Positions 6,001 to 62,220 of a DNA stretch of 64,000 nucleotides are shown here, one piece after another. A model generated the notes under the pieces. It was given only the letters and a program-made list of their open reading frames with translations. It was not told the origin of the DNA and made no database searches. This stretch comes from Macrostomum lignano (Eukaryota). Position numbers and translations under genes: made by a program. The DNA lies in NCBI GenBank assembly GCA_002269645.1, contig NIVC01001157.1, forward strand, positions 62,001-126,000, given 5' to 3'. Each line of letters begins with the position of its first letter. The first letter of the stretch is position 1.

Positions 6001-9000
6001 ACTGATAGTGACGCAGACACTGACGCAGATACTGATAGTGACGCAGACACTGACGCAGATACTGATAGTGACGCAGACACTGACGCAGATACTGATAGTG
6101 ACGCAGACACTGACGCAGATACTGATAGTGACGCAGACACTGACGCAGATACTGATAGTGACGCAGACACTGACGCAGATACTGATAGTGACGCAGACAC
6201 TGACGCAGATACTGATAGTGACGCAGACACTGACGCAGATACTGATAGTGACGCAGACACTGACGCAGATACTGATAGTGACGCAGACACTGACGCAGAT
6301 ACTGATAGTGACGCAGACACTGACGCAGATACTGATAGTGACGCAGACACTGACGCAGATACTGATAGTGACGCAGACACTGACGCAGATACTGATAGTG
6401 ACGCAGACACTGACGCAGATACTGATAGTGACGCAGACACTGACGCAGATACTGATAGTGACGCAGACACTGACGCAGATACTGATAGTGACGCAGACAC
6501 TGACGCAGATACTGATAGTGACGCAGACACTGACGCAGATACTGATAGTGACGCAGACACTGACGCAGATACTGATAGTGACGCAGACACTGACGCAGAT
6601 ACTGATAGTGACGCAGACACTGACGCAGATACTGATAGTGACGCAGACACTGACGCAGATACTGATAGTGACGCAGACACTGACGCAGATACTGATAGTG
6701 ACGCAGACACTGACGCAGATACTGATAGTGACGCAGACACTGACGCAGATACTGATAGTGACGCAGACACTGACGCAGATACTGATAGTGACGCAGACAC
6801 TGACGCAGATACTGATAGTGACGCAGACACTGACGCAGATACTGATAGTGACGCAGACACTGACGCAGATACTGATAGTGACGCAGACACTGACGCAGAT
6901 ACTGATAGTGACGCAGACACTGACGCAGATACTGATAGTGACGCAGACACTGACGCAGATACTGATAGTGACGCAGACACTGACGCAGATACTGATAGTG
7001 ACGCAGACACTGACGCAGATACTGATAGTGACGCAGACACTGACGCAGATACTGATAGTGACGCAGACACTGACGCAGATACTGATAGTGACGCAGACAC
7101 TGACGCAGATACTGATAGTGACGCAGACACTGACGCAGATACTGATAGTGACGCAGACACTGACGCAGATACTGATAGTGACGCAGACACTGACGCAGAT
7201 ACTGATAGTGACGCAGACACTGACGCAGATACTGATAGTGACGCAGACACTGACGCAGATACTGATAGTGACGCAGACACTGACGCAGATACTGATAGTG
7301 ACGCAGACACTGACGCAGATACTGATAGTGACGCAGACACTGACGCAGATACTGATAGTGACGCAGACACTGACGCAGATACTGATAGTGACGCAGACAC
7401 TGACGCAGATACTGATAGTGACGCAGACACTGACGCAGATACTGATAGTGACGCAGACACTGACGCAGATACTGATAGTGACGCAGACACTGACGCAGAT
7501 ACTGATAGTGACGCAGACACTGACGCAGATACTGATAGTGACGCAGACACTGACGCAGATACTGATAGTGACGCAGACACTGACGCAGATACTGATAGTG
7601 ACGCAGACACTGACGCAGATACTGATAGTGACGCAGACACTGACGCAGATACTGATAGTGACGCAGACACTGACGCAGATACTGATAGTGACGCAGACAC
7701 TGACGCAGATACTGATAGTGACGCAGACACTGACGCAGATACTGATAGTGACGCAGACACTGACGCAGATACTGATAGTGACGCAGACACTGACGCAGAT
7801 ACTGATAGTGACGCAGACACTGACGCAGATACTGATAGTGACGCAGACACTGACGCAGATACTGATAGTGACGCAGACACTGACGCAGATACTGATAGTG
7901 ACGCAGACACTGACGCAGATACTGATAGTGACGCAGACACTGACGCAGATACTGATAGTGACGCAGACACTGACGCAGATACTGATAGTGACGCAGACAC
8001 TGACGCAGATACTGATAGTGACGCAGACACTGACGCAGATACTGATAGTGACGCAGACACTGACGCAGATACTGATAGTGACGCAGACACTGACGCAGAT
8101 ACTGATAGTGACGCAGACACTGACGCAGATACTGATAGTGACGCAGACACTGACGCAGATACTGATAGTGACGCAGACACTGACGCAGATACTGATAGTG
8201 ACGCAGACACTGACGCAGATACTGATAGTGACGCAGACACTGACGCAGATACTGATAGTGACGCAGACACTGACGCAGATACTGATAGTGACGCAGACAC
8301 TGACGCAGATACTGATAGTGACGCAGACACTGACGCAGATACTGATAGTGACGCAGACACTGACGCAGATACTGATAGTGACGCAGACACTGACGCAGAT
8401 ACTGATAGTGACGCAGACACTGACGCAGATACTGATAGTGACGCAGACACTGACGCAGATACTGATAGTGACGCAGACACTGACGCAGATACTGATAGTG
8501 ACGCAGACACTGACGCAGATACTGATAGTGACGCAGACACTGACGCAGATACTGATAGTGACGCAGACACTGACGCAGATACTGATAGTGACGCAGACAC
8601 TGACGCAGATACTGATAGTGACGCAGACACTGACGCAGATACTGATAGTGACGCAGACACTGACGCAGATACTGATAGTGACGCAGACACTGACGCAGAT
8701 ACTGATAGTGACGCAGACACTGACGCAGATACTGATAGTGACGCAGACACTGACGCAGATACTGATAGTGACGCAGACACTGACGCAGATACTGATAGTG
8801 ACGCAGACACTGACGCAGATACTGATAGTGACGCAGACACTGACGCAGATACTGATAGTGACGCAGACACTGACGCAGATACTGATAGTGACGCAGACAC
8901 TGACGCAGATACTGATAGTGACGCAGACACTGACGCAGATACTGATAGTGACGCAGACACTGACGCAGATACTGATAGTGACGCAGACACTGACGCAGAT

Positions 9001-12000
9001 ACTGATAGTGACGCAGACACTGACGCAGATACTGATAGTGACGCAGACACTGACGCAGATACTGATAGTGACGCAGACACTGACGCAGATACTGATAGTG
9101 ACGCAGACACTGACGCAGATACTGATAGTGACGCAGACACTGACGCAGATACTGATAGTGACGCAGACACTGACGCAGATACTGATAGTGACGCAGACAC
9201 TGACGCAGATACTGATAGTGACGCAGACACTGACGCAGATACTGATAGTGACGCAGACACTGACGCAGATACTGATAGTGACGCAGACACTGACGCAGAT
9301 ACTGATAGTGACGCAGACACTGACGCAGATACTGATAGTGACGCAGACACTGACGCAGATACTGATAGTGACGCAGACACTGACGCAGATACTGATAGTG
9401 ACGCAGACACTGACGCAGATACTGATAGTGACGCAGACACTGACGCAGATACTGATAGTGACGCAGACACTGACGCAGATACTGATAGTGACGCAGACAC
9501 TGACGCAGATACTGATAGTGACGCAGACACTGACGCAGATACTGATAGTGACGCAGACACTGACGCAGATACTGATAGTGACGCAGACACTGACGCAGAT
9601 ACTGATAGTGACGCAGACACTGACGCAGATACTGATAGTGACGCAGACACTGACGCAGATACTGATAGTGACGCAGACACTGACGCAGATACTGATAGTG
9701 ACGCAGACACTGACGCAGATACTGATAGTGACGCAGACACTGACGCAGATACTGATAGTGACGCAGACACTGACGCAGATACTGATAGTGACGCAGACAC
9801 TGACGCAGATACTGATAGTGACGCAGACACTGACGCAGATACTGATAGTGACGCAGACACTGACGCAGATACTGATAGTGACGCAGACACTGACGCAGAT
9901 ACTGATAGTGACGCAGACACTGACGCAGATACTGATAGTGACGCAGACACTGACGCAGATACTGATAGTGACGCAGACACTGACGCAGATACTGATAGTG
10001 ACGCAGACACTGACGCAGATACTGATAGTGACGCAGACACTGACGCAGATACTGATAGTGACGCAGACACTGACGCAGATACTGATAGTGACGCAGACAC
10101 TGACGCAGATACTGATAGTGACGCAGACACTGACGCAGATACTGATAGTGACGCAGACACTGACGCAGATACTGATAGTGACGCAGACACTGACGCAGAT
10201 ACTGATAGTGACGCAGACACTGACGCAGATACTGATAGTGACGCAGACACTGACGCAGATACTGATAGTGACGCAGACACTGACGCAGATACTGATAGTG
10301 ACGCAGACACTGACGCAGATACTGATAGTGACGCAGACACTGACGCAGATACTGATAGTGACGCAGACACTGACGCAGATACTGATAGTGACGCAGACAC
10401 TGACGCAGATACTGATAGTGACGCAGACACTGACGCAGATACTGATAGTGACGCAGACACTGACGCAGATACTGATAGTGACGCAGACACTGACGCAGAT
10501 ACTGATAGTGACGCAGACACTGACGCAGATACTGATAGTGACGCAGACACTGACGCAGATACTGATAGTGACGCAGACACTGACGCAGATACTGATAGTG
10601 ACGCAGACACTGACGCAGATACTGATAGTGACGCAGACACTGACGCAGATACTGATAGTGACGCAGACACTGACGCAGATACTGATAGTGACGCAGACAC
10701 TGACGCAGATACTGATAGTGACGCAGACACTGACGCAGATACTGATAGTGACGCAGACACTGACGCAGATACTGATAGTGACGCAGACACTGACGCAGAT
10801 ACTGATAGTGACGCAGACACTGACGCAGATACTGATAGTGACGCAGACACTGACGCAGATACTGATAGTGACGCAGACACTGACGCAGATACTGATAGTG
10901 ACGCAGACACTGACGCAGATACTGATAGTGACGCAGACACTGACGCAGATACTGATAGTGACGCAGACACTGACGCAGATACTGATAGTGACGCAGACAC
11001 TGACGCAGATACTGATAGTGACGCAGACACTGACGCAGATACTGATAGTGACGCAGACACTGACGCAGATACTGATAGTGACGCAGACACTGACGCAGAT
11101 ACTGATAGTGACGCAGACACTGACGCAGATACTGATAGTGACGCAGACACTGACGCAGATACTGATAGTGACGCAGACACTGACGCAGATACTGATAGTG
11201 ACGCAGACACTGACGCAGATACTGATAGTGACGCAGACACTGACGCAGATACTGATAGTGACGCAGACACTGACGCAGATACTGATAGTGACGCAGACAC
11301 TGACGCAGATACTGATAGTGACGCAGACACTGACGCAGATACTGATAGTGACGCAGACACTGACGCAGATACTGATAGTGACGCAGACACTGACGCAGAT
11401 ACTGATAGTGACGCAGACACTGACGCAGATACTGATAGTGACGCAGACACTGACGCAGATACTGATAGTGACGCAGACACTGACGCAGATACTGATAGTG
11501 ACGCAGACACTGACGCAGATACTGATAGTGACGCAGACACTGACGCAGATACTGATAGTGACGCAGACACTGACGCAGATACTGATAGTGACGCAGACAC
11601 TGACGCAGATACTGATAGTGACGCAGACACTGACGCAGATACTGATAGTGACGCAGACACTGACGCAGATACTGATAGTGACGCAGACACTGACGCAGAT
11701 ACTGATAGTGACGCAGACACTGACGCAGATACTGATAGTGACGCAGACACTGACGCAGATACTGATAGTGACGCAGACACTGACGCAGATACTGATAGTG
11801 ACGCAGACACTGACGCAGATACTGATAGTGACGCAGACACTGACGCAGATACTGATAGTGACGCAGACACTGACGCAGATACTGATAGTGACGCAGACAC
11901 TGACGCAGATACTGATAGTGACGCAGACACTGACGCAGATACTGATAGTGACGCAGACACTGACGCAGATACTGATAGTGACGCAGACACTGACGCAGAT

Positions 12001-14334
12001 ACTGATAGTGACGCAGACACTGACGCAGATACTGATAGTGACGCAGACACTGACGCAGATACTGATAGTGACGCAGACACTGACGCAGATACTGATAGTG
12101 ACGCAGACACTGACGCAGATACTGATAGTGACGCAGACACTGACGCAGATACTGATAGTGACGCAGACACTGACGCAGATACTGATAGTGACGCAGACAC
12201 TGACGCAGATACTGATAGTGACGCAGACACTGACGCAGATACTGATAGTGACGCAGACACTGACGCAGATACTGATAGTGACGCAGACACTGACGCAGAT
12301 ACTGATAGTGACGCAGACACTGACGCAGATACTGATAGTGACGCAGACACTGACGCAGATACTGATAGTGACGCAGACACTGACGCAGATACTGATAGTG
12401 ACGCAGACACTGACGCAGATACTGATAGTGACGCAGACACTGACGCAGATACTGATAGTGACGCAGACACTGACGCAGATACTGATAGTGACGCAGACAC
12501 TGACGCAGATACTGATAGTGACGCAGACACTGACGCAGATACTGATAGTGACGCAGACACTGACGCAGATACTGATAGTGACGCAGACACTGACGCAGAT
12601 ACTGATAGTGACGCAGACACTGACGCAGATACTGATAGTGACGCAGACACTGACGCAGATACTGATAGTGACGCAGACACTGACGCAGATACTGATAGTG
12701 ACGCAGACACTGACGCAGATACTGATAGTGACGCAGACACTGACGCAGATACTGATAGTGACGCAGACACTGACGCAGATACTGATAGTGACGCAGACAC
12801 TGACGCAGATACTGATAGTGACGCAGACACTGACGCAGATACTGATAGTGACGCAGACACTGACGCAGATACTGATAGTGACGCAGACACTGACGCAGAT
12901 ACTGATAGTGACGCAGACACTGACGCAGATACTGATAGTGACGCAGACACTGACGCAGATACTGATAGTGACGCAGACACTGACGCAGATACTGATAGTG
13001 ACGCAGACACTGACGCAGATACTGATAGTGACGCAGACACTGACGCAGATACTGATAGTGACGCAGACACTGACGCAGATACTGATAGTGACGCAGACAC
13101 TGACGCAGATACTGATAGTGACGCAGACACTGACGCAGATACTGATAGTGACGCAGACACTGACGCAGATACTGATAGTGACGCAGACACTGACGCAGAT
13201 ACTGATAGTGACGCAGACACTGACGCAGATACTGATAGTGACGCAGACACTGACGCAGATACTGATAGTGACGCAGACACTGACGCAGATACTGATAGTG
13301 ACGCAGACACTGACGCAGATACTGATAGTGACGCAGACACTGACGCAGATACTGATAGTGACGCAGACACTGACGCAGATACTGATAGTGACGCAGACAC
13401 TGACGCAGATACTGATAGTGACGCAGACACTGACGCAGATACTGATAGTGACGCAGACACTGACGCAGATACTGATAGTGACGCAGACACTGACGCAGAT
13501 ACTGATAGTGACGCAGACACTGACGCAGATACTGATAGTGACGCAGACACTGACGCAGATACTGATAGTGACGCAGACACTGACGCAGATACTGATAGTG
13601 ACGCAGACACTGACGCAGATACTGATAGTGACGCAGACACTGACGCAGATACTGATAGTGACGCAGACACTGACGCAGATACTGATAGTGACGCAGACAC
13701 TGACGCAGATACTGATAGTGACGCAGACACTGACGCAGATACTGATAGTGACGCAGACACTGACGCAGATACTGATAGTGACGCAGACACTGACGCAGAT
13801 ACTGATAGTGACGCAGACACTGACGCAGATACTGATAGTGACGCAGACACTGACGCAGATACTGATAGTGACGCAGACACTGACGCAGATACTGATAGTG
13901 ACGCAGACACTGACGCAGATACTGATAGTGACGCAGACACTGACGCAGATACTGATAGTGACGCAGACACTGACGCAGATACTGATAGTGACGCAGACAC
14001 TGACGCAGATACTGATAGTGACGCAGACACTGACGCAGATACTGATAGTGACGCAGACACTGACGCAGATACTGATAGTGACGCAGACACTGACGCAGAT
14101 ACTGATAGTGACGCAGACACTGACGCAGATACTGATAGTGACGCAGACACTGACGCAGATACTGATAGTGACGCAGACACTGACGCAGATACTGATAGTG
14201 ACGCAGACACTGACGCAGATACTGATAGTGACGCAGACACTGACGCAGATACTGATAGTGACGCAGACACTGACGCAGATACTGATAGTGACGCAGACAC
14301 TGACGCAGATACTGATAGTGACGCAGACACTGAC
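1..14334. repeat. 30-bp tandem satellite (GACACTGACGCAGATACTGATAGTGACGCA)n, ~477 copies visible, runs off the left edge
   Basis: Read directly. Only three interruptions seen: an 8-bp insertion GACTGACA at 1771 and again at 3639, and a 1-bp deletion near 4135. The unit is five related 6-mers. The [10 protein letters not shown] ORFs in the track are one reading frame of this repeat. Confidence 0.98.
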
Positions 14335-30650: not shown

Positions 30651-33600
30651 GCCTGTCTGTCTGTCTGCCCGTCTGTCTGCCTGTCTGTCTGTCTGTCTGT
30701 CTGTCTATATTAATATTAATCTATATGTATGTATCTCACATCTCAGGCCCCCCAGCTGGACATCAACACGGTGGCCGCAGGCGGCGGTTCCCGCCTGTTC
30801 TTCCGCTCCGGCCTGTTCGTCGTCGGGCCCGAGTCGGCTGGCGCGCACCCCGGCCCGGTCTGCTACAGGAAAGGCGGCCCCCTGACCGTCACGGATGCCA
30901 ACCTGGTGCTGGGCCGGCTGCTCCCGGATCAGTTTCCGAAGATCTTTGGACCCACCGCTGATCAGGCGCTGGACGCAGAGGGGGCAAGGTGAGATTTTGG
31001 GATATTGATTGATGAGATCCAGGCATGAGATTGACTGATTGATGAGATTCACTGAGATTGATAAGATCCTGTGAAATTGATTGATAGAATTCTAGTGAGA
31101 TTGATTAATTGATAATATCCAGTGAGATTGATTAATTGATAATATCCAGTGAGATTGATAATATCCAGTGAGATTGATAATATCCCGTGAGATTGATAAG
31201 ATCTAGTGAGATTGATAAGATCCAGTGAGATTGATAAGATCTAGTGAGATTGATAGGATCCAGTGAGATTGATAAGATCCAGTGAGATTGATAAGATCTA
31301 GTGAGATTGATAATATCCAGTGAGATTGATAAGTCCAGTGAGATTGATAAGTCCAGTGAGATTAATAGGATCCAGTGAGATTGATAAGATCCAGTGAGAT
31401 TGATTAATTGATAAGATTCAGTGAAATTGTTTGATGGAATTCTAGTGAGATTGATTAATTGATAAGATCCAGTGAGATTGATTAATTGATAATATCCAGT
31501 GAGATTGATAATATCCAGTGAGATTGATAATATCCCGTGAGATTGATAAGATCTAGTGAGATTGATAAGATCCAGTGAGATTGATAAGATCTAGTGAGAT
31601 TGATAGGATCCAGTGAGATTGATAAGATCCAGTGAGATTGATAAGATCTAGTGAGATTGATAATATCCAGTGAGATTGATAAGTCCAGTGAGATTAATAG
31701 GATCCAGTGAGATTGATAAGATCCAGTGAGATTGATTAATTGATAAGATTCAGTGAAATTGTTTGATGGAATTCTAGTGAGATTGATTAATTGATAAGAT
31801 CCAGTGAGATTGATTAATTGATAATATACAGTGAGATTGATAAGATCCAGTTAGATTGATAAGATCCAGTTAGATTGATAAGATCCAGTTAGATTGATAA
31901 GATCCAGTGAGATTGATTAATTGATAAGATTCATTGAGACTGATTGATAAGATTGATTGAGACTGATTGATAAGATTGATTGAGACTGATTGATAAGATT
32001 CATTGAGACTGATTGATAAGATTCATTGAGACTGATTGATAAGATTCATTGAGACTGATTGATAAGATTCATTGAGACTGATTGATAAGATTCATTGAGA
32101 CTGATTGATAAGATCCAGTGAGACTGATTGATAAGATTCATTGAGACTGATTGATAAGATTCATTGAGACTGATTGATAAGATTCATTGAGACTGATTGA
32201 TAAGATTGATTGAGACTGATTGATAAGATTCATTGAGACTGATTGATAAGATTGATTGAGACTGATTGATAAGATTCATTGAGACTGATTGATAAGATTC
32301 ATTGAGACTGATTGATAAGATTCATTGAGACTGATTGATAAGATTCATTGAGACTGATTGATAAGATTCATTGAGACTGATTGATAAGATTCATTGAGAC
32401 TGATTGATAAGATCCAGTGAGACTGATTGATAAGATTCATTGAGACTGATTGATAAGAGTAGTAGGAAAGTGGTACCCTCTACCGCCATCGCACGGGATT
32501 GGCCGGGGCACCCGGCCAATGAGGGGAGAGGGCGCCCCGAAGACGCCCACCCCGACGCCAAACCCACCCCGACCCCAAACCCACCCCGACCCCAAACCCA
32601 CCACCGCCACGCACCCAATCCCGACCCCAAACCCACGCACCCACCCCCGACCCCAAACCAGGCCCCCTCCTGTCCTACACCCCTCCTGTCCTGCACCCCG
32701 TGCATCCCATACCAAGACCCCCTCCTGTCCTGCACCCCGTGCATCCCATACCAAGACCCCCTCCTGTCCTGCACCCCGTGCATCCCATACCAAGACCCCC
32801 TCCTGTCCTGCACCCCGTGCATCCCATACCAAGACCCCCTCCTGTCCTGCACCCCATGCATCCCATACTAAGACCCCCTCCTGTCCTACACCCCTCCTGT
32901 CCTGCACCCCGTGCATCCCATACCAAGACCCCCTCCTGTCCTGCACCCCATGCATCCCATACCAAGGCCCCCTCCTATCCTACGCCTTGCCCCATCCCAT
33001 GTAGCAAGGTCCTTCTATCCTGTACCCTAACCAAAACCAATTCCCCCCTCCTAATTCCTAAACCCAAGTCTTATTACCTGTCTCACTTACCGCCTTTAAA
33101 GCTAGCCAAGGCAAAACCCTCATTCCATGCTTTGGTTGTACTGTATCTTGCTGTGGCGGGTACAGCGTGAGGTCGTTAGACCTAGAACGCTACTTCTTGG
33201 CGGCCAGAGGGCCGCAAGAAGGTCCCGCCACCTCCTGTTACGTTGATGGCTGAGACTTTGTTAAGGCCCGAGTTCCTGCGAAAGGGCTGCTGTGTGGGGG
33301 TTGGATTTGGGGTTCGGATTAGTTATTTCTATGGAACAGGAGCTGGTTTCTAAATGGCTGAGTGGTCCCCGGAAGGGCTCCTGATTTGCCGAGAGTTCCT
33401 GTGAGAGGGCTGTTGTGTGGGGTTGGATTCGGGGTTCGGATTGGTTATTGCTATGGAGCGGGAGCTGGTGTTACTTACCAACTCTCGTCGTATATAATCT
33501 CGCACACAGCCGGAAGGAAAGCTCACAGTGAACAAAATGAACTTCAAGACATTATCGAACAGATTTCGAATCGGCGTCAGGTCGCACTCGAAGTGCATCA

Positions 33601-36600
33601 GCATCAGAAAGTGGTACAAATTTGATGAAGAGTATCGACCAGGTCTGCCTGGCATGGAGCTCACCGTCCACCAGTTTTGCCACTTGGGCAGCCTGAAGGA
33701 ACGACTGGAAGAGTTTGCAAGAAAGTGTATCGATGCGCAATGCCTTCTGGGTGGCAACAGGCAAGTGGTTGTGCAAAATGGCGTAATCACACTCTGGCGC
33801 CTTCCAACTGTACTCGGACCGCCGGTGCACCTAAGGCACGCCTTACCGCTTCCTACAAAACTTTGGCGCGAAGTCTGGGCTCAAAAGCATTGGGTCCTAG
33901 ACAAAATTGTCAAGCGAGAACCTCCGGTCAAGCCACCGATCGGCGATCCATGGGATACCACCCTACGGAGCCTGAAGAGTGTGCAGCATGGGCAGCAAGG
34001 CTTACACTCGACCAACTTATACAAGTACCTGACAGGCAGCCGGCAGAGTGGGACGACCACTGGGAGGCTTTCCAGGCAGTTCAGGCTGAATTTAGAAAGA
34101 GATTTGCATCCGAAACTCTGGAAGAGCCACCAACAGCTGAGAAGAACCAACAGCCTTCATTCCACCAGCCACCAATGAAGCGACGCGCAATGCATGAAGC
34201 GACAACTGGTCATTTCGTCAATTAACGTTTTTAATATAGTTTTGAACCATAGTACTGATCATGCACTGTTGTATATACTGCTTTGTCAATACTGGCTATA
34301 ATATTGCCCCATCATGCTTTGATTCCGGGCGATAATACTGTTTTGTAAATACAGGCGACGGGCCTTAATACTGCCCTTCCATTCTTAATAAACTTTTTTG
34401 TGCTAATACGAGCTTTTAACATGTAATTTTATGCTTTTCAATCCATGGACCTGCCAATAAAATAAACAAAAAAAAACATTTCATTTTCGTAAGCATTGTT
34501 GCACAAACATAGTCGCATTCGCGTTTATTTTTTCTTATATTTTGTACACAAAAAATATAGAAGTAAAGTTATAGGAAAAATATTATTATTATTATAATTA
34601 TTATTACTCGGTGCATAGGCAGATCTCACTACTACTGTTATGCCGTAGAGGAGCTCAGTCAGAGTCCAGCAAAGTAGGTTCGGATGCTTGATCTGGTAGC
34701 AAAATGCGGGAGAGGGCATCAGCTGCAGTCTGAGCCTCAACCACGCTGCGAGCACCAGCTATTATACAGCGATATGAATGAAACAAAATCAACTTTACAG
34801 AGGCAGTAAACTCGAGCACAAGTCCGTTAAACATTTCCGGCTCGTAGGTGGCCCGATGCGGCCATTTAGACTTGACTTCCCCCAACCGGAGTGGATGCCG
34901 ACCCGCGGGAAAGGTCGTCACAGAGGTAATAGTCTTGATGCGAATCTGGGGCAGACTGGTCAATCGCAAGAAGTCCGCACACAACTTCACAATCTTCTCT
35001 GTCTCTGCGAGAGCTTCCTCCATGCTTTTGGCTCCACAGACAGACACTTGTCCGGTCGGATACACCAGCGCGGTTACTCGATGCTGCCCGCTCTTCATCA
35101 CCACAGCCAGTGTTCGAGGATGAACCAGGCGATGGCGGATTGTGTGATACTGAGGCAGATGAAGAGTCAGGAAATTCGCTAGTTGTGGCAGAGCCACCCG
35201 GGTCGCCAGGTCGGCTCCTGTCACGATGTTTGTTACGCGAATTGCTCCGGCCATCTTTAGACAATCGAGAGAAATGCCAGTGCCTGCTGCAGATCGCTAC
35301 TTTTATAGACCCGTAGCCGCGAGGCCGCAGCCAATCAGCGTACAGCGCCACCTTGGCCAGGGCGTAGGGTAGCACGTACTTCGAGGCACTCGGAAAGGCC
35401 AGGTGTGCGAGGTCGTAGACAGGCTGTAGCAGCAGACGCGACAGGAACTGGCACTTGACATCCCCCTTGCTAAATATCGGGCCTTGCAAGTGAGAGATAT
35501 CGCTCCAGAGACAAGAGTAGGGTCGGAACCCACTCCTGTCCCAGTCTAGACCGTGCCGCTTATTGGTGAGCCAGTAGCAGGTTCGTCGCTGTCCTCGATC
35601 AAAGAGCTCAAAGCTGTGCGGCGGTCGGTAGCAATAGTAATGAGCCGTCGTTTGACCGCATGCAAACTCAACCCATGCAATTTCCTTAATCACAAAGTCC
35701 TCTGTTTTGTAGAGGTGCGGAAATCCTTCAAAATCAATGACAATCATCTTGGCCACTTGATCCACTTGCCGTATCCTTTCTGAGACTGAGTCTTCTTATA
35801 GTCTTGCAGTCGAGGTTTTTTAGGACTAGACTTTTCTTCCCGAGGCTTTTCCAGCAATTTTGTAGTGTTCAGACCAACTGCAGACAGAGGCACGTGGTTT
35901 TCTTGAAGACACGTAACAAACTCATTAATCCCATTCGGTGGCTGAAGGTACTTAGAGTACGTATCTTTAACTATGAAATGCAGCAGGTCCACGATATTTG
36001 AGTTGTACAACGGTTTACCATTGACAGAAACTTCATACGTATCATCTATGCTAATCGACTTGCACTTTACGGTTATGAAGCTAATCAATGCCTGCAGACG
36101 ATGATGCCATTTCTGATTCACCGTCAGATATAAAACCTCCTTCCACTGCGGTTCTTTGTGAATTACTGGAGGCTGTTCTTGGGTCGCACTTGCCTGCAGC
36201 TGCTGCACGCAACGCTCGTCCCTAATCTTGCGCAACCGTTTTTCCGCCTCTAGCTCGGGTTCACAGACTGTCTCCATGCCCCTCTGATTCACAAGTGCCT
36301 CATACTGCAACCGGGGTACCAGTATCATTTCCTTGTACATGTCTTTTTATACAGGTGAGAATCAGAGGAAGACAACGAAGGATATGCGGGTGTGAGAGAT
36401 TGCGCCGAGCCTCTTTCACACTTTTGCTTTGTGCAACAAGCCGGAGAGTATTTCGATATCGCCTGAGTCTCCGCTTCAAGCTATCTTCACAGCCAACTTT
36501 TCCTGCTAGTAAGTTGATAATACACTCGACCAAAAAGCAAATGGTGCTTTTATTTGCATAGGTAAGTATGCAGCGACGCAAGGATATAGTGCCCTCACAA

Positions 36601-39600
36601 AAGACAGTTATTAGTGCAATGTGTTTATCCATGTTTAACTCAGTGCAGAGACTGAGCCATTCTTATAGATAAACTCGCTGCGGGGCCTCATCGGGGAGAA
36701 AATTGGCTCTCAGGCGCAGTTCATGGGGTGAAGCGGGGTGAAAATCAAGCAGCAGATAGCGCTGATCTCCATCTCGCACCAATCGATCCATCAGTTCTAC
36801 TAGCAGAGTGCGCCGTTTGGGAAAGCATTGCTGACTTAAAGCTTGGACCGCAGAGGCGTCTCTGGGGTTGTTGAACAACACAATGTAGGTGCAATTTATG
36901 CTAATTGTGCGCCACTCTCTGCCTTTGAAAAATAGATTTTGCGTGATGAGAATGACAAAGCAGGGCTTGTGGTGAGCCTCACGGGTGAACAGATGTCGTA
37001 GCTCTCGACTTGCAGCTGCTTCATCCAGTAAATCGTCAATCACAATCAGGTCATGGGGCTGCAGATCCAAATTCGATAATCCTTCACATACTTGCACTCC
37101 TAGCCGCCGCAGAGTCGTGTGGAGTTCCGGCTGCGGGCATCCGTGATACCAAATCATCCGCTTGGGAGGTTGGTCGAACAGAAGCAGTCGTTGGGACAGC
37201 AACCGCAAACAGAATGTTGATTTTCCCGCTCGAGAAGGGCCCGAAACCATCATGCAGCCTCCCATCCGCAGTCTGGAATCAAACACATTGCAACTGATTT
37301 TTGAGTCTGAGTATGATTGCATCGTTTTGAGCCACAGCTGCCGGGTGCAAAACCTTGATGAACAAGGCATTATATGACATTCTCTTATGTAGTCGATGGA
37401 TCAAGTAAAAAATGCAATACCAGCCGCATAGAGTTGACGAACTGGGCTGAACAGGGACCGTATTCCATTGTAGCACCATCCGCGTCGGTTTAGTTTTCTT
37501 TAACCAGCTCTTCATATTTTTACTCAATATTGGGGTGGAGGGACTTGACTTCAAATACTTCCTCACTCCATCCCCTTGTGTATCCCTTGGTGAATGGGTT
37601 GGCCAGATTGCGAAGAGAGATTCGCACCATCATTCCTGCCTTGAACTTTGGTCTGGAGACCTTTTCACGAGTCTCAGGAAGCTTCCCATCGTAAAGCCGC
37701 TGCCAAATTTCCATCTCGTTTGACTTGTCGACATCAACTGGTCGGCTTTGAATACTCCGATGAATATTCTGGTTGTATGCTTTTGCTAAGGGTTGAAGCA
37801 CATCGGTCCAGGTTAATGTTGACTTGTGACGGAAGTACCGCCACATTCGGGATTTCAGTGTGCGGTTCCATCTCTCAATGGCTGCGCATTTCTGGTCACT
37901 ACTTGATGTGAATGCATGAATTTTGTGGTTTACGCAGAGGGCTCGGAACTGGGTGTTGCAAAACTCTTTTCCACGGTCGGTCCGAACTGCTCGTGGGCAT
38001 CGAGGGTGAGCTCGATTTAGGATCGCTTCGAATCCGGCTGCAACCTCCTCGGCTGTCTTGCGGCGCACTGGCTGAACCCAGGCAAACTTGCTGAGCACAT
38101 CAATGCAGCATAGAATATATCGTACGCCGCCATTGTACTTAGCGAACGGCAGCATTTCAACAAGGTCCAGTTCCCACTGGTCATCCATGCCCCGCACCAC
38201 AATCGGTGCTCGACAAAAGTTTTTGCGTTTATCTCTATGCAGTGTGTAGACATCTTGGTCTTGGAGCCACGTTTTTACCTTTAATTGTAAAAAAAAAAAC
38301 TGGAAATTGCTAGTTAGTGGATAAAACTAAAAACCTAAGCTGGAATTTTCTAGAAAATCATTGGTTTAGAAGTATATCGTATATGCATACCTGCCCTACA
38401 CTAAACTTGGGTCCGTGGTGTTTGTGCAACTCTCGTTTTAATGCCTGATAGCCGCCATAGCTGCCCGGTCTACTGCAGTCAAAATAAATACCTGGCAGAA
38501 GGTTTGAAATTGCCTTTTTCGTTTTCATTTTACCGAATTTCTAGTACCTATCATTTTCTTATGCCAAACACCCGGCTTGAAAAAAAAAACTGCCCACCCC
38601 ACCAGTTTCTGCGGATTTAGCGTTTCTAGCCTCTGTTGTGCACGAAAAAGCATGCATGTTTGCACAAAATACATACATTTCGATGGGAATTTTTACCCGA
38701 ATGTGTGCACAAAAAACCTCAACACTTTGCATACTTTTTAACACTGTGCACGAAAACTTGCATACTTGTGCACAAAATACATGTATTTCAATAGGGATTT
38801 GTACCCGAACCCTCGCATGAAAGTAGACGCATTTTGTCGAAAAATTCACGCCGTATTGCATACTTTTAATCACTGGACGAAAACTTGCATACTTTTGCAT
38901 AAAACACATGTATTTCAATAGAGATTTTTAACCTTTTTTAAGTGCATGAAATTTTACATTGTTTTACACGATTTAATTTTACACAAAAACTAGTATTTCG
39001 ATTTGAATTTAGTTTGTTTTATATATTATTTTATCGACAGTTTTAAACCCTTTTTACTTTATGAAAATAAATAAAAAAAAATTTTCTTTTTACCAGCCTC
39101 AACTCAAACTAACATATATACATTTCATGTTTATTAAAAAAGTGCCATAATTCCTCGTTAGTAATTAAAAATCAGCAAATGAAACGTACAAAAATGCAAC
39201 GCACACATTGGCAGTATTATCGGCCAAAACATTCTGATTATATTAAAAAATGGTATCAATGGTATTTTTATTATCTAGACAGCAGAATAAAACAAAACAT
39301 CATCGTTATTATCAATAAACAAGGTAGGTACAAGTTTCGTATTCAGAAAAATCTAGTCAAACGGGCAGGGTCGCTTTCGCTTCTCAGCCTCTAGACGCCA
39401 GTGGCCGTAGGGTAGGCTCTGATTTGCCGCGAGCCATGCCCTCTTGTCCTCCCAAAACGAGAGTGCGCGTTTCAAGGTGGCAGTGGTGAACAACTCATGA
39501 TGCTCACTGGCAATACGACGCGTCAGCCAGGACTTTTCTTCCATTTTCATCAAAGTTTCGCAGTAGTCGGCGTGGCAGATTTCATTTTGCACTACAGATC

Positions 39601-42600
39601 GCTGCACACCCTTAGCACGACGCTTGTCCTTGGAGGAGTTTACTGCAGCAAAGGAATAGAGCTTGGGACGCAACAGGATCCACTCATAAAAGTTCGCTGT
39701 ACCATCGCTCTCATCCTTTACACAGCCTAACCTTGCTTTGCGTTCGCAAGTATACAAGCAATGGTCCTTGGGATAATTAGAGGTGTCCAGCAGCTCCATT
39801 TCGCACAGTTTAGGCAGAAACCATCGCTCGCCATCAGCATTCTTTAAGTGGAGGAAGAAAGAGTCAGTGTCACCGCCGAGCAGACTGAGGCTCGCACACG
39901 GTAACTGATTGACCAGCGGAAGCAGCTTATCATACCACAAGCTGTACATAATGAGTTTGCTGTTATCAAGGACACACTGTCCGATGTACACCGGTTTGTT
40001 GAGCTCGACTGTTGTCTTGCGCATGTGGACGAGAACAAGATTCTCATTAAATATCTCTTGATCTTCAAAGTTAGGTTTAGCTGCGAGCTTCTCCAACTTC
40101 TCTGCTGAGTTGACCAGGCGGTAGTCGACGCGTTTGCGCACGTTCTCCATGGTCTTTCCAAACAGAGAGTTGTTCAGCAGCTTATTATAATCCTTTTCAA
40201 ACTCATTTTTGGCTTGTGCACGCCGCTCACTATTACGTCGAATGTAAGGCTCGAGTACTGCTGCTTGCTGAAAGCGAACAATGCAGTGGACAGTACGCAG
40301 CCTAAGACCTAGACGGAGATAAAACTGTAGGATTCTGGCGTGTACAACATAGCTGGTTTTATCAAAGCATGTCAACATCAACTTGTCGCCTCCTGAATTA
40401 TATCCTCCGCAAGAGAGCCTCTGTCTAGAAAGTAGTTCCCAGAGCTGCTGCTGATGCGGCGGCATCCATTCCCATTGAGGCTGCGCCTTCTCTGGAGCAA
40501 GGGGCAAGTCTGATGTCTTGTCGTGCAACTCTGGGGGGTAATGGAGATCAACCTTTAGCAGGTATCCAACATCGCCCTCTGGGTCAAACTCATCCCTGAT
40601 CCATCTCTCAACCTCATTGTTTGGTGGTACAGTGTCAAGCACTTGGAACCCACACCATGGCAGTTTGGTGGACAAGGCGTGTCCGTAGAGGTTGTTGGCG
40701 TCGATGGGGATAAGATAGGTTTGAGGTTGATGCGAATCATACAGCTCACCGAGTCCGGGATGGTTGGCTTTGGCTCTGTGTGTGTTGACAAATGTCATAC
40801 CACCACGAGTACCCTCTTCAAATAAGCTGTACAACTCTGGACATTGCAGCAATTCAAGCTCCAATTTACAGTACTTAAGCGCTGCTTCGAAAGACATTCC
40901 CGGCGTCGTTATAAAATGCACTGGGTCTAGCCCATCCGAAGTGAGGCTCATTCGACGAAACGCCTCGAACACATCGGCGAGCTGGCGAATGTCCATTTCT
41001 AGGTATGCAAGCATGTAGTCGCGCAGTGTCTCACATCCAAACTCTCTCCAGGCACGCTGGGCAGTTGCATAGTCCTGATCATTGCAAGGCTCATTGTTCA
41101 AGTCGTTAGCAAAAGCTTCTTGGGATGGGAGCTGTTGCTCATCTAAATTCGAATCACTAGTTACATAGGAATAGGGGAACACCCCCTTTCGCAGTAGGAC
41201 TTCGGTGGAGGCGAGTGGATATCGCTGCTGCATCTCCATCGTGTAGTGACAGTCTACCGGGGTTAGATTGCGCACTAATTGAGCAAGACTCGACGCCATG
41301 AATTGGAAAGAGTCGAGAAAACGCAGACGCATGAATTTTGGCACCAAGCGATCTTTAGATGAGTCATAGACCGACTCAATAGGTATACGGGCCTCTAGAG
41401 TCATGTAACGCTCCTTTGTTTGTGCAATGACACTTAGTTCCCAATGTTTCATACGACCGATCACCGTGCTGCACAACAAGTGTGAATCATAACCTCGGAA
41501 ATTGTGAAAAAAGATTGGAAGAAAGTCGCGCTTGAGAACAGCTGACTCATTACACGACGGGCATGCAGCACCCAAAAACTTGCCATTGAGATGATCATGA
41601 TGAAAGTGGCGATCGTCATCAAGAACTTTCTCGCACAAGCAGCAATGAGTGGCAGTCTGGAACTGCTCTTCCTCCTGGACAGAGCGATTGGCAGGGTAAT
41701 GACTATGTCGCGCATTCCACTTGTATGCTGCAATGGCGACAGCCTCCAGTGCCTGTAGGAAGTGCATCATGCACTCATCCGACTTTTAAAACAGCTGCAT
41801 AGGACGTTTGGAGAGTGGAGGCCCAGCTACGTCACTTCTTTGGACAATAAGGAATCCGGCAGCGGCTGGAAGGTGGTGTGCAGTCTTAAAGGTAACACAG
41901 CCATCTAGCTCATCGTCTATGGGGGACATCATTGCTTCAAAATCTGCATAGATGACATGAGGTGGGGAGAGTGTTTTGTGCCATGCCTTGAATCGTAGTG
42001 TTTTATCCTTTGGCATCACCTCCTCCATGCTATCCTTACGGCCAATGCACCGCCGTCTATGAACGGATAGAGACTCAACCGTCCGGAACTTGCCTAGACA
42101 GCGATCGCACCAACGATATCTATGCGCGTCATGACTGTTCATTAGACGATCTAGGTTAGCAATAGCACACCAATGGTTGCCGGCATCAGTGGTAACCAAT
42201 AGAAGCAGGATCAATCGATGAGGTCGCCATTCCTGAATGAGATCTGCTGGGGCTGGGCGTAAGCACTGGGCATGGCCGTTAGTCCAGTTGAAGGCCGAGA
42301 TAGCCAATCCTGGATTGTTCTTTTCCACTCGACCCAGGTCATTCACGTTGGCAGGGAAAGGAACGTTGTCCCAACGGAGTTCGTCTTCCCACTCCCGGAA
42401 AGTGGAGCGTCGCAAAGGCTTCTCACTGCTGACACGGTCTGCGTGCAATGCAGACAGAACGGCATATTTCAGACAGTCGTTCCCACTGGAGTAGGCATTG
42501 ATCACTGCCTTTTTAGCCTTTAGCTTTGGTGGAAGTTCAAATGGGTTGGAACTTATACCTGAGCCATGAGGCAACTGATATCTTACAATGGAAAGATCTA

Positions 42601-45600
42601 CGCAGCGAGTGGAGTCAATTGTCCACCCACTGCCATTGCGAAGGTATTTGCTCAGTCGTTCCAAAATAAGTGGGATTTCCCGAACAAAGAAATCTTCTTC
42701 CTCATCTGAAAGGACTTCGGCCGTTTCACTGGCAAACCAGGCTGTGCTCTGCGCCACAAAGCTGCCACCAGCCCAACGCTGCATAGACACGCCGAGTCGG
42801 ATTTGGACCTTGATGGCAAAGCCTGGTTTCGAACGCAGATCTGCCAGGAGTTCTGTGCCTGAAGCAATGGATGACTCCAGGGCGTCGATGGGATCGCCGG
42901 CAACGATCCGCCGATAGAGTCGCGTCTGGCCGAAAAATGCTTCTTTAATTAATTGGAATTGACATGGTTCATCAGAAAATAAAGTTGGAATAATTGGGCA
43001 CACTGAGTAGTGAGCTAATATGTCACCGGGCACTGTCTGACTACAGTATTCACAAAATGTCATGTTTAAAATTTAGAACGCAAAATTTAAAAGTCTTTAA
43101 ATAAAACTCTAGGACCGAAAAACTGTGAGCTTTCCTTCCGGCTGTGTGCGAGATTATATACGACGAGAGTTGGTAAGTAACACCAGCTCCCGCTCCATAG
43201 CAATAACCAATCCGAACCCCGAATCCAACCCCACACAACAGCCCTCTCACAGGAACTCTCGGCAAATCAGGAGCCCTTCCGGGGACCACTCAGCCATTTA
43301 GAAACCAGCTCCTGTTCCATAGAAATAACTAATCCGAACCCCAAATCCAACCCCCACACAGCAGCCCTTTCGCAGGAACTCGGGCCTTAACAAAGTCTCA
43401 GCCATCAACGTAACAGGAGGTGGCGGGACCTTCTTGCGGCCCTCTGGCCGCCAAGAAGTAGCGTTCTAGGTCTAACGACCTCACGCTGTACCCGCCACAG
43501 CAAGATACAGTACAACCAAAGCATGGAATGAGGGTTTTGCCTTGGCTAGCTTTAAAGGCGGTAAGTGAGACAGGTAATAAGACTTGGGTTTAGGAATTAG
43601 GAGGGGGGAATTGGTTTTGGTTAGGGTACAGGATAGAAGGACCTTGCTACATGGGATGGGGCAAGGCGTAGGATAGGAGGGGGCCTTGGTATGGGATGCA
43701 TGGGGTGCAGGACAGGAGGGGGTCTTGGTATGGGATGCACGGGGTGCAGGACAGGAGGGGTGTAGGACAGGAGGGGGTCTTAGTATGGGATGCATGGGGT
43801 GCAGGACAGGAGGGGGTCTTGGTATGGGATGCACGGGGTGCAGGACAGGAGGGGGTCTTGGTATGGGATGCACGGGGTGCAGGACAGGAGGGGGTCTTGG
43901 TATGGGATGCACGGGGTGCAGGACAGGAGGGGTGTAGGACAGGAGGGGGCCTGGTTTGGGGTCGGGGGTGGGTGCGTGGGTTTGGGGTCGGGATTGGGTG
44001 CGTGGCGGTGGTGGGTTTGGGGTCGGGGTGGGTTTGGGGGTCGGGGTGGGTTTGGCGTCGGGGTGGGCGTCTTCGGGGCGCCCTCTCCCCTCATTGGCCG
44101 GGTGCCCCGGCCAATCCCGTGCGATGGCGGTAGAGGGTACCACTTTCCTACTACTGATAAGATTCATTGAGACTGATTGATAAGATCCAGTGAGACTGAT
44201 TGATAAGATTCATTGAGACTGATTGATAAGATTCATTGAGACTGATTGATAAGATCCAGTGAGACTGATTGATAAGATTCATTGAGACTGATTGATAAGA
44301 TTCATTGAGACTGATTGATAAGATTCATTGAGACTGATTGATAAGATTCATTGAGACTGATTGATAAGATTCATTGAGACTGATTGATAAGATTCATTGA
44401 GACTGATTGATAAGATTCATTGAGACTGATTGATAAGAACCAGGGAGATTGATTCATAAGATGCGGTGAGATTGATTGATTGATTGATAGGATCCAGTGA
44501 GATTGATAGGATCCAGTGAGATTGATAGGATCCAGTGAGATTGATAGGATCCAGTGAGATTGATAGGATCCAGTGAGATTGATAGGATCCAGTGAGATTG
44601 ATAGGATCCAGTGAGATTGATAGGATCCAGTGAGATTCAATGATTCAATCTAGATTCTGCCAATCGCAGTCGCAGTTGATTGATGATCCCTAAATTGCAA
44701 AATCTCTTATCTCAGACAGGCAATGTCAGCGCTGACAGATGAGATCAACGCTTTCTTATCAGCAGAGACCGGCCAGGCTGCCATGTCAGTTGAGGAGGCC
44801 GCCCTAGGCTTCGTGCGAGTCGCCAACGAGTCAATGTGCCGCCCTATTAGGGCTCTGACCCAGGCTAAGGGGCACAATACGGCTAAGTAAGTCTGGGACA
44901 TTGGGGTCTGGTTTAGCTTTGCTTGCTGCTGATTACCAATCTGTATCTATTTGTCACTCTTTATTACCTATCTGTCACTCCATAGTTAACTGTTTGTCAC
45001 TCCATAGCTACCTCTGTCACTCTATAGCTACCTATCTGTCACTCCATAGCTACCTCTGTCACTCCATAGCTACCTATCTGTCACTCCATAGCTACCTATG
45101 GATACATATCTACATAACTCCATATAACTCCATAGCTACATATCCGCCACGCCCTAACCGCCATAGCTATCTATCTGGCACTCCATAGCTGCAGGGTGGT
45201 CCGTAGACACAGCGGGGAGGCGAGGGTCGCCCATTCCGCTACACTCCATAGCTACCTGTCTGTCACTCCATAGCTACCTGTCTGTCACTCCATACCTACC
45301 TGTCTGTCACTCCATAGCTACCTGTCTGTCACTCCATAGCTACCTGTCTGTCACTCCATAGCTACCTATCTGTCACTCCATAGCTACCTATGGATACATA
45401 TCTACATAACTCCATATAACTCCATAGCTACATATCCGCCACGCCCTAACCGCCATAGCTATCTATCTGGCACTCCATAGCTGCAGGGTGGTCCGTAGAC
45501 ACAGCGGGGAGGCGAGGGTCGCCCATTCCGCTACACTCCATAGCTACCTGTCTGTCACTCCATAGCTACCTGTCTGTCACTCCATACCTACCTGTCTGTC

Positions 45601-59777: not shown

Positions 59778-61761
59778 TCGATTGATGCACTTTTATGTGC
59801 TGATTATAACATTCAATAGTGTGTTGGGTGCCAATAGTTTTTTCTGTTAGAATTGCCAATATTTATGTTTTTTCGTTAGTTTAGAAACCGATTAGAATTA
59901 TTTAGCGGCAATTAGAACCCGTGAAACTGAATAGGAGAGTCAATGATCTTTAATTTGTTTAAAAACATTTAGATACTAAATTTAGCGTCATGATTCATAC
60001 TACTTATGTATGCTTAGTAGTCAAGTAGTGCGTAATTCGCAATATTTAGCCAAGTAGAGTGTAGCAGATTATTTTTTCACTTAATTTTTTGATTTTTGCA
60101 ATATAATGCAGTCTTATTGATTGATTTTTAGGCAATTAAACCTCCGTTATTATTTATCTTGTATGTCATGCCTCTTGCTCAAAATAGACTTTATTTCTGT
60201 AGTACAGAAATTATCATTTCGCTTAGCTACACAAATAAATAAATTGATTAATTTTAGTAATCTGCTGGCTGATAGTTCTTCTCGCTGAGTTGTTTAATTT
60301 AATACACAATAGTCTGGTGAGTCGCGCCACCAAACCCAGTACCAATGTCACAATGTGTGTCGTGTGGCATCGTCCACTATCCCAGTGTGTCGTGCCACCC
60401 CTGTGCCAGACATCTACATGTATGTGCTCAGTGCCACTTACACTTGATATTAATTGTAATCGACTAACTCTTTCATCGCTTTATACTGAATCTATTAGTA
60501 TTTTATTCCTAAAGACAGTAACTGCGAAACATTTAAATAGTTTGTAGCATTTGCAACGGACAAAGCCGAAGATAAAGTTCATATTGCAGCCATTTCAGCA
60601 ATTATAGCTTAAATTATTTGCGTCAAGACCTAGTTTTAACATTAATTTCTATAATTGTTTTAGTAATGCTTGAACACAGCTATTTGCTGCTTTGGAATTG
60701 TTTATTTGCGGTGCGAATCATCCACGCTCTGTCTATAAATTTAAATGTTCAATTTTCTATGAAAGCAAGTTCAAGCAGTTCGAAAGCTGCTAAAAATTAC
60801 TAAAGCTAATACTCTGTTAACTTAATTTACAGCCACGCTGATGTATTTTTTCAAATGTATTTTTTTGCAGTTTCTTTTCTTTTCGGTTTTTAATATGATG
60901 ATAGGATTTCTAAATAGATTGATTTATTGATATTTTTACGATTGACTGAATCAATAAACGATTCAGGTCTTGAGGTCTATAAAATGAAAAGAGCTAAGTG
61001 AATCAGAGACAATGAATATTTGAAATTACTCAAACGTTTCTTAAACAATAAAAGTATCCATATAGTAATCTTATAGGTTTAGAATCAGATGTAGCTCTAG
61101 CTCTAGCCAGTTTTATTATATGCTACACATCTATATAAACAATGATTCTACTATGACTATAGTACTCTACTTTAACAAATTTATGGTTGCATGAAAGCCA
61201 ATGCAGGAAGTTGTCTTGAAAGCTTAAAAATAATTAAAAGGTGACATTTAACAACAAAATTTCAGTATTTTACTATTTTGTGGCAATGTGGCAATCAAAA
61301 ATACATATATGAAATTATAAAAAGTTGCTATTTTTAGATATTATTCATTAATTTTGGTCTCTAAGAAATTTTGCTCCATTATACCAAGTATAGTGTCATA
61401 GCCTTCATTCTATACCTCACCAACTAGAGTGGATTAAAAACTAGAGAAAATTAGACTGTTTTATATAAGATATAACTGGGACAATCTAATAGAAAAGAAG
61501 CAGTATAGTTTTAACTTTTAAATCAATATGTTTTGTCAATCTAAATTTATCTAAGTTGTCACTAAAAAGTATAATATTAATAATTTTTCAGTAATTTAGA
61601 TAAAAAAATAAGACTTAGACATAGTAAGTTCAACATAAATTTTTTTTCTCTATAATTTTAATGCTCCTAATTTCTAATGGTTCAAATTGTTAATGATAAA
61701 GTTTCAAATGAATTTGTTTTTTGTGTTGTTTGCATGCTTACCAATTTATCTTGTCTTCACT

Positions 61762-62139
61762 ATGCTCAGCTTATTTGCACTCGTGCTACTGTTAGTAGTG
61801 CCCAGCAGTGCCCTAGCTAGTAGGTCCGTGTCTGGCTATTTGATCTACTGCCCCTGTATGGGCCGTTTTGGCAATCAGGCTGAGCAGTTTCTTGGCGTCC
61901 TGGCATTTGCCCGCCAACTCCGCCGAACCCTGGTTGTGCCGCCATGGATATCGTATGGCAGGCCGGGTGCTGGCATCGACCTCACACCGTTTGGCAGGCA
62001 TTTCAACCTGACCAAGTTGGATGCCGCCCATCCAGTGATTGATATGCGCCAGTTTGTTGACAAGCTCTCGCCCGCTCTGTGGCCGGCTGGCAGCAGGGCA
62101 GTATTTTGCCACTCTGCTAGAGAGGATGGCACTTGTCAG
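61762..62139 (+). CDS. POFUT1: GDP-fucose protein O-fucosyltransferase 1, first coding exon (gene continues beyond the window)
   Basis: Signal peptide MLSLFALVLLLVVPSSALA, then GYLIYCPCMGRFGNQAEQFLGVLAFARQLRRTLVVPPW (GT65 signature); donor CAG|GTGCGG at 62140. Confidence 0.92.
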
Positions 62140-62220
62140 GTGCGGGCATTTTTCAAAGGCCTGTTATAAAAATTTTATTGTGACGAATTTGAAGCATCTC
62201 TGATCTTTTCCGTAGACTTT

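Follow-up and report, generated by a model that had tools for sequence, protein, structure and literature searches.

Introduction

In the descriptions that come closest to the locus considered here, the core open reading frames (ORFs) of Polintons (Mavericks) are intronless, a general point taken for granted in the preliminary description of this DNA and confirmed by the accessible sections of two studies (PMC8097293; bioRxiv 10.1101/2022.07.12.499685). For vertebrates, the authors report that they observed no intron in any intact Maverick, consistent with Kapitonov and Jurka 2006, and give the end motifs of the elements as (AGT)2//(ACT)2 or (AG)3//(CT)3 (PMC8097293). For nematodes, the corresponding sections describe intronless core genes, with introns confined to captured cargo (bioRxiv 10.1101/2022.07.12.499685), and no introns are reported in the part of a study on endogenous virophages that was available (PMC8547959). 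The article listings and passages covered by our literature search contain no account of an animal Polinton whose integrase gene has a spliceosomal intron; the accessible portions of five further sources (PMC12220804, PMC10748475, PMC11296320, 10.64898/2026.07.28.741278 and PMC10294476) contain nothing on this point. The same search returned no paper on a Polinton with both a TATA-binding protein (TBP) and PC4, and in the sections at hand TBP occurs as a figure-legend label for MELD viruses in non-animal datasets (PMC8502044; 10.1101/697771).

Here we analyze a stretch of 64,000 nucleotides from the flatworm Macrostomum lignano (contig NIVC01001157.1, positions 62,001 to 126,000; henceforth the window), which contains a Polinton whose integrase gene is split by a short AT-rich segment. 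On the basis of sequence comparison, we believe, with a probability of roughly 0.8, that this segment is a GT-AG intron, which was gained once on the stem of its family, is spliced by the host from an RNA polymerase II transcript and is carried as tolerated cargo.

Results

The Polinton and its surroundings

The element spans 32458-44155 (11.7 kb) and is recognizable as a Polinton/Maverick by inverted repeats of ~1,050 nt, (AGT)2 ends and a 6-bp target-site duplication (Table 1). It is located within a host oxoprolinase gene (28161-57999, plus strand), between exons; the introns of this gene are full of tandem repeats, and an O-fucosyltransferase exon follows at 61693-62169 (plus strand). The first part of the window, 1-14200, is a perfect tandem array with a 30-nt period, ~14 kb in all.

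Table 1. Features of the Polinton and of its integrase gene, in window coordinates
Feature	Position	Strand	Remarks
Target-site duplication GATAAG	32452..32457	+	second copy 44156-44161
Terminal inverted repeat, other side	32458..33529		811 nt 100% complementary; 96% over 1,073 columns
PC4 (p15 coactivator)-like domain gene, N-terminal	33537..34178	+	PF02229 E 5.6e-5, below cut-off
TATA-binding-protein-like gene	34655..35254	-	both repeats; PF00352 E 1.3e-19, 2 stretches
P-loop ATPase	36663..37370	-	weak Pfam AAA matches below cut-off; 45% identical to sister-family ORF
Cysteine protease 3' remnant	37282..37527	-	joined to integrase by deletion
Integrase exon 2 with rve core	37520..38278	-	PF00665 E 8.7e-13; 252 codons + stop
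Putative phase-0 GT-AG spliceosomal intron	38279..38390	-	112 nt, CAG/GT site
Alternative acceptor TTCCAG	38300..38305	-	21 nt upstream of AAG
CACTAAC, branch-point-like, not conserved	38313..38319	-	3/27 copies
Donor GTATGC	38385..38390	-	first 6 nt of segment
Integrase exon 1	38391..38528	-	46 codons, ATG at 38528
Protein-primed DNA polymerase B	39353..43063	-	PF03175 E 1.6e-12
Terminal inverted repeat, polymerase side, (AGT)2 end	43122..44155

The window copy is defective: a deletion at 37527/37530 has taken away the integrase C-terminus together with the putative capsid genes and the 5' part of the protease gene. Other copies carry, without Pfam matches, ORFs of fitting size and place, which we take to be the capsid genes, and in one of them the protease shows a weak match to PF02902 (E 0.0085). 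The P-loop ATPase is, by its position as well, presumably of the packaging type. Two further breaks in this copy were considered as introns and rejected: the end of the integrase frame at 37520, which is due to the deletion, and the split of the polymerase, which is an in-frame stop at 41786-41788. The genome contains at least 151 matches to the TBP-like gene, and the PC4-like domain, below the cut-off here, exceeds it in a sister family (PF02229, E 5.4e-8). Both of these general polymerase II factors are thus encoded by the element as well as by the sister family (L084:2372-2758 and L083:4782-5552). Overlapping the TBP-like gene in another frame is an ORF of 293 codons (34866-35747, minus strand) with no Pfam match; its N-terminal motif is reminiscent of DEDD-type exonucleases. 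Imperfect repeats of ~125-190 nt at 38637-38963, upstream of the integrase start, possibly mark a promoter region. Elsewhere in the genome, on G000:C2301 (L083-L085), two gene sets of the sister family are inverted relative to each other, without a polymerase gene between them as far as the stretches were fetched, and paired sister-family integrase matches likewise occur on C3189 and C592.

Anatomy of the split integrase gene

The preliminary description had presented the integrase gene as interrupted by an AT-rich segment of 112 nt. In its material aspects this holds: the segment is real, lies at 38390-38279 on the minus strand between a 46-codon frame and a 252-codon frame, and its length is not a multiple of 3 (remainder 1). 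The signals listed for it, namely a GTATGC start, CACTAAC, a T-tract (T11) and an AG end (as AAG), are all present in the window copy, and the ATG-based list of ORFs indeed misses exon 1, with the integrase beginning there at 38188. What could not be upheld is that splicing would yield a full-length integrase from this copy, its C-terminus having been lost to the deletion, which lies within exon 2 and shortens it. The segment has a GC content of 26.8%, as against 45.7% and 49.5% in the flanking frames, and stops interrupt all three reading frames through it. The base at 38314 differs in contigs from all four sequencing runs compared.

Within the element interior (9,591 nt, minus strand) the donor motif AGGT[AG][AT]G, with a per-site chance of a match of 2.5e-4, occurs a single time, at 38390, precisely where the homology with uninterrupted integrases breaks off. 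The pentamer AGGTA is, however, present at both junctions of the segment, so that GT and AG would be partly automatic under a duplication; even so, the extra donor letters would be expected by chance with a probability of ~0.08. A donor-like CAG/GTATTT at 38491, within exon 1 and 101 nt upstream of the donor, is accounted for by a conserved coding motif. At the other end, the alternative acceptor TTCCAG, ending at 38300, is in frame and would define an intron of 91 nt.

Comparison with uninterrupted integrases

A protein search with exon 2 of another copy of the family recovered 57 homologues, the closest integrases outside the family being P0001 and P0002 (76% and 70% identical, respectively). 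Aligned with these two, exons 1 and 2 occupy adjacent columns with neither gap nor overlap. The intron position was checked in related integrases, as the preliminary description had proposed: 55 of the 57 homologues are continuous, in that the same ORF contributes at least 25 residues on the N-terminal side of the site, a count biased upward by the preference of gene callers for continuous ORFs. The N-terminal domain itself is lacking in some distant Polinton-type integrases (two of the 57 matches; L077, L088 and L089). Over 32 residues of exon 1 the family shares 14-15 with P0001 and P0002, which share 12 with each other. Both of them have Gln-Val (Q/V) at the site, and a CAG/GT there is what such ancestral codons would lead one to expect.

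By homology, an N-terminal bundle of three helices receives its first two helices and the beginning of the third from exon 1. The structure of P0060, an uninterrupted member of the P0002 cluster, was modeled (pLDDT 88.6; match to foamy-virus integrase, E 1e-15), and in this model the site falls inside helix 45-53, the third of the bundle, which implies that neither piece alone would form the N-terminal domain.

A tree of 23 integrases places three copies of the family with P0001 and P0002 (100/99), adjacent to an uninterrupted sister family from the same genome, and the sister families of this genome have a continuous integrase without the segment. A single gain on the stem of the family is probably the simplest reading of these relationships, if P0001 and P0002 do not derive from spliced RNA; otherwise the gain would be older. 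The protein collection searched contained no annotated spliced protein of the intron-bearing family. With P0002 as the query, searches for the DNA of relatives returned one distant locus among metagenome contigs and nothing among viral contigs; with an alignment they returned three distant viral loci. Among 106 places in the genome scored with P0002 (the best candidates only, hence a lower bound) no segment-free copy of the family was found: its matches begin at or beyond about residue 65 (one at 55, across a stop), and those of the sister families at 18-32. When ORFs of the sister family were compared with three copies of the family, no intron-sized gap appeared in the putative major capsid, ATPase, TBP-like and neighboring genes; the ORF in the minor-capsid position found no match in this comparison.

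Copies of the segment in the genome

A DNA search of the genome gave 38 matches, from which 30 loci were fetched; both flanks are present in 27, many of them near-identical and thus not independent. Their segments measure 106 nt (15 copies), 95 nt (5), 112 nt (3), 126 nt (2), 111 nt (1) and 96 nt (1), and in 23 of the 27 the length is not a multiple of 3. All 27 start with GT and end with AAAG, and 26 have G at +5; the donors are GTATGT (17), GTATGC (7), GTATGG (2) and GTATTT (1). Between these fixed ends the interior is not conserved. In 23 of the 27 copies exon 1 can be opened by an in-frame ATG, which stands 45-50 codons ahead of the donor and is separated from it by no stop. Two relic copies with segments of 187 and 178 nt have the same ends and a rearranged interior, with four YTRAY motifs each close to the acceptor. 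In one copy (L070:1068-6083, on G000:C254) a transposon of 5,016 bp that encodes a P-element-like transposase domain (PF21787) is inserted inside the intron; its inverted repeats are short and the duplication measures 8 bp.

The 3' signals are less uniform. The CACTAAC offered earlier as the branch point stands for the window copy and falls as a family feature: it is found in three of the 27 copies, 18 have CACTAGC, without the would-be branch A, and six have neither; a YTRAY motif within 60 nt of the acceptor is present in three of the 27 and absent from the other 24. The pyrimidine tract before the AAG is modest (pyrimidine fraction 0.59-0.73), and four host acceptors inspected by eye are all CAG, as against AAG in the segment. 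The upstream CAG is in frame in 21 copies and out of frame in six, and lies 15 nt (17 copies), 21 nt (2), 24 nt (2), 14 nt (5) or 20 nt (1) from the segment end. We nevertheless favor AAG at 38279 over CAG at 38300 as the probable acceptor, because it gives the zero-gap fit to the uninterrupted integrases and would work in all copies, including the five 95-nt copies in which the CAG is out of frame.

As to the origin of the segment, the preliminary description had held that relatives lacking it, together with signs of a transposable-element insertion, would count against an intron. The relatives do lack it and AGGTA stands at both junctions; on the other hand, it has no terminal inverted repeat and no copy outside the gene. 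The duplicated AGGTA would be explained by an introner or MITE whose insertion produced a target-site duplication and which came to be spliced, or by an in-frame coding insertion turned intron, and introners have been described inside dinoflagellate Polinton-like elements (PMC11957031, in the sections available). The segment may also be an old, eroded introner. Yet every one of the 30 genomic matches falls at an integrase locus of the family (in a search that skips simple repeats and common words), the segment does not resemble the remainder of the element (35 of 100 shuffles do equally well) and has no Rfam match, its only repeat is an internal, imperfect one of 26 nt, CAG/GT is expected from the ancestral Gln-Val, and a proto-splice site explains the AGGTA repeat equally well. 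A coding origin could appeal to the 126-nt variant (L057, L058 and L065), which reads through in frame from one exon to the other without a stop, a property shared by 4% of shuffles; this variant is one dead pair that reads like translated AT-rich DNA. L065 additionally has an LTR-retrotransposon-like insertion in exon 2. We therefore consider these insertional origins quite improbable. With no terminal inverted repeat and no copy outside the integrase gene, the mode of gain, so far as such comparisons can speak to it, reads as intron gain at a proto-splice site rather than as a mobile insertion.

Selection on the integrase

Changes shared by two or more copies number 27 synonymous against 20 non-synonymous or stop in the catalytic core (pN/pS 0.21), with a p for purifying selection of 2e-7 to 1e-5, whereas single-copy changes (3 versus 18; 1.71) look neutral. 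The purifying selection in shared changes indicates that the family required its integrase during the time in which it carried the segment. In exon 1 alone the shared changes (7 synonymous versus 14 non-synonymous) give no significant signal (p 0.13); with the first 30 codons of exon 2 added, p is 0.08 for shared changes, 0.24 when transition bias is allowed for, and 0.01 to 0.08 for all changes.

The lack of significance in exon 1 leaves some room for an insertion that is not spliced at all, so that the N-terminus is cut off and the elements rely on a core-only integrase starting from the Met at 38188 or are mobilized in trans by the sister families. The in-frame ATG at 38188 does precede the catalytic core, uninterrupted sister-family integrases are abundant in the genome, and the N-terminal domain is, as noted, dispensed with by some distant Polinton-type integrases. 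We nonetheless judge this unlikely: the ends of the segment are fixed while its interior ranges from 95 to 187 nt, the frame of exon 1 is intact in 23 of the 27 copies with a conservation equal to that in relatives, the selection on the core is unexpected from pure trans-mobilization, and the sole strong donor motif on the strand stands at exactly this point.

Discussion

How the integrase would be made

The proposal that the segment is a spliceosomal intron is thus sustained on comparative grounds, through the zero-gap fit, the fixed ends, selection on the core and the absence of the segment from sister families; the part of it that would rest on a spliced junction is not matched by the contigs compared here. 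Of 24 sequencing runs, 19 contain the stretch and none is recorded as RNA; over 33540-43110 we compared contigs of four of them (X1, X2 and X5, guessed to be RNA, and X15). Contigs of X1, X5 and X15 cross the segment unspliced, and neither joint, 38391/38278 or 38391/38299, appears in the contigs of the four, which drop rare variants. The depth of X1, X2 and X5 tracks that of X15 (Spearman 0.60-0.76), also over intergenic DNA, and looks like DNA copy number.

The model that we prefer, of a spliced and tolerated intron, begins with the gain of the intron at a pre-existing CAG/GT, between integrase codons 46 and 47. The host spliceosome would then remove the segment from a nuclear RNA polymerase II transcript, thereby connecting the helical N-terminal domain with the catalytic core; RNA left unspliced would meet a stop ~10 codons into the intron and provide for only a 56-residue peptide. 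The intron would be tolerated cargo, its weak acceptor at most lowering the output of integrase. Splicing itself, the choice of acceptor and transcription by polymerase II are what we infer from these comparisons. Nuclear expression by polymerase II, as the preliminary description had it, follows if the intron is real. The TBP-like and PC4-like genes of the element fit nuclear transcription; being present in the uninterrupted sister family too, they are uninformative on the intron.

A hypothetical regulated gate

The further suggestion of a splicing switch akin to that of the P element finds no support: the retained form would be a 56-residue product without most of helix 3, the interior is unconserved and the branch point is a minority variant. 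Under such regulation, splicing would be confined to germ or stem cells, or blocked through piRNAs, so that integration would be confined likewise. This would accord with the intron being the only one found among the core genes compared, with retention abolishing the integrase while leaving the other genes untouched, with the weak acceptor and branch signals, and with the donor-like CAG/GTATTT at 38491. That last site is due to a conserved coding motif, however, and the short retained peptide is unlike the 66-kDa P repressor with its DNA-binding domain. The segment folds no better than its shuffles (z 0.07), and the sister families reach larger copy numbers without such an intron. We hold a gate of this kind to be very unlikely. 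Similarly doubtful is the more elaborate notion that the integrase intron is a host-spliceosome gate separate from the replication and virion genes, complemented by the element's own TBP-like and PC4-like proteins steering polymerase II; if true, it would amount to a regulated nuclear expression program in a Polinton. The comparisons described here point to a real, probably spliced intron in the integrase, with no evidence for a switch.

Implications

ORF-based or Genewise screens score intron-sized gaps as decay, and an intron-bearing lineage with a selected core would be mis-scored as dead. If the intron is real, it would be direct evidence for nuclear transcription of an animal Polinton and for processing of its RNA by the spliceosome of the host. 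The family also offers a clean and recent case of intron gain: its genome contains sister families without the interruption, and the segment lengths form a series from 95 to 187 nt. The reach of the observation is limited by introns being ordinary in DNA transposons and nuclear DNA viruses, and by the want of support for a regulatory role.

Parallels in known systems

Comparison with described elements places this Polinton close to the vertebrate and nematode Mavericks, with which it shares long terminal inverted repeats with (AGT)2//(ACT)2, a 6-bp target-site duplication, the protein-primed polymerase B and the rve integrase, and presumably also the packaging ATPase, the protease and, in other copies, putative capsid genes. 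It differs from them in its split integrase, as opposed to the intronless core ORFs given in the accessible accounts of those elements, and in its TBP-like and PC4-like genes. The maverick-polinton-like elements of dinoflagellates, as presented in the available sections (PMC11957031), are similar in containing intron-type sequences inside Polinton-like elements; their introners, however, are dispersed, mobile and mostly acquired after integration, whereas here a single, non-dispersed segment is found family-wide and is copied with the element. In the Ginger1 DNA transposons, an rve-type integrase likewise contains GT-AG introns, numbering 1 to 4 in some families, although these are cut-and-paste elements, of 2.6-5.9 kb in the entries covered, without polymerase or virion genes (PMC2836005, in part). 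Finally, the third intron of the Drosophila P element, in the portion of the account at hand (PMC7776569), parallels the present one as a frame-breaking intron in the gene of a mobilizing enzyme. There, retention is tissue-specific, depends on an exonic silencer and yields the 66-kDa repressor, none of which is in evidence for the intron described here, which interrupts its gene at codon 46.
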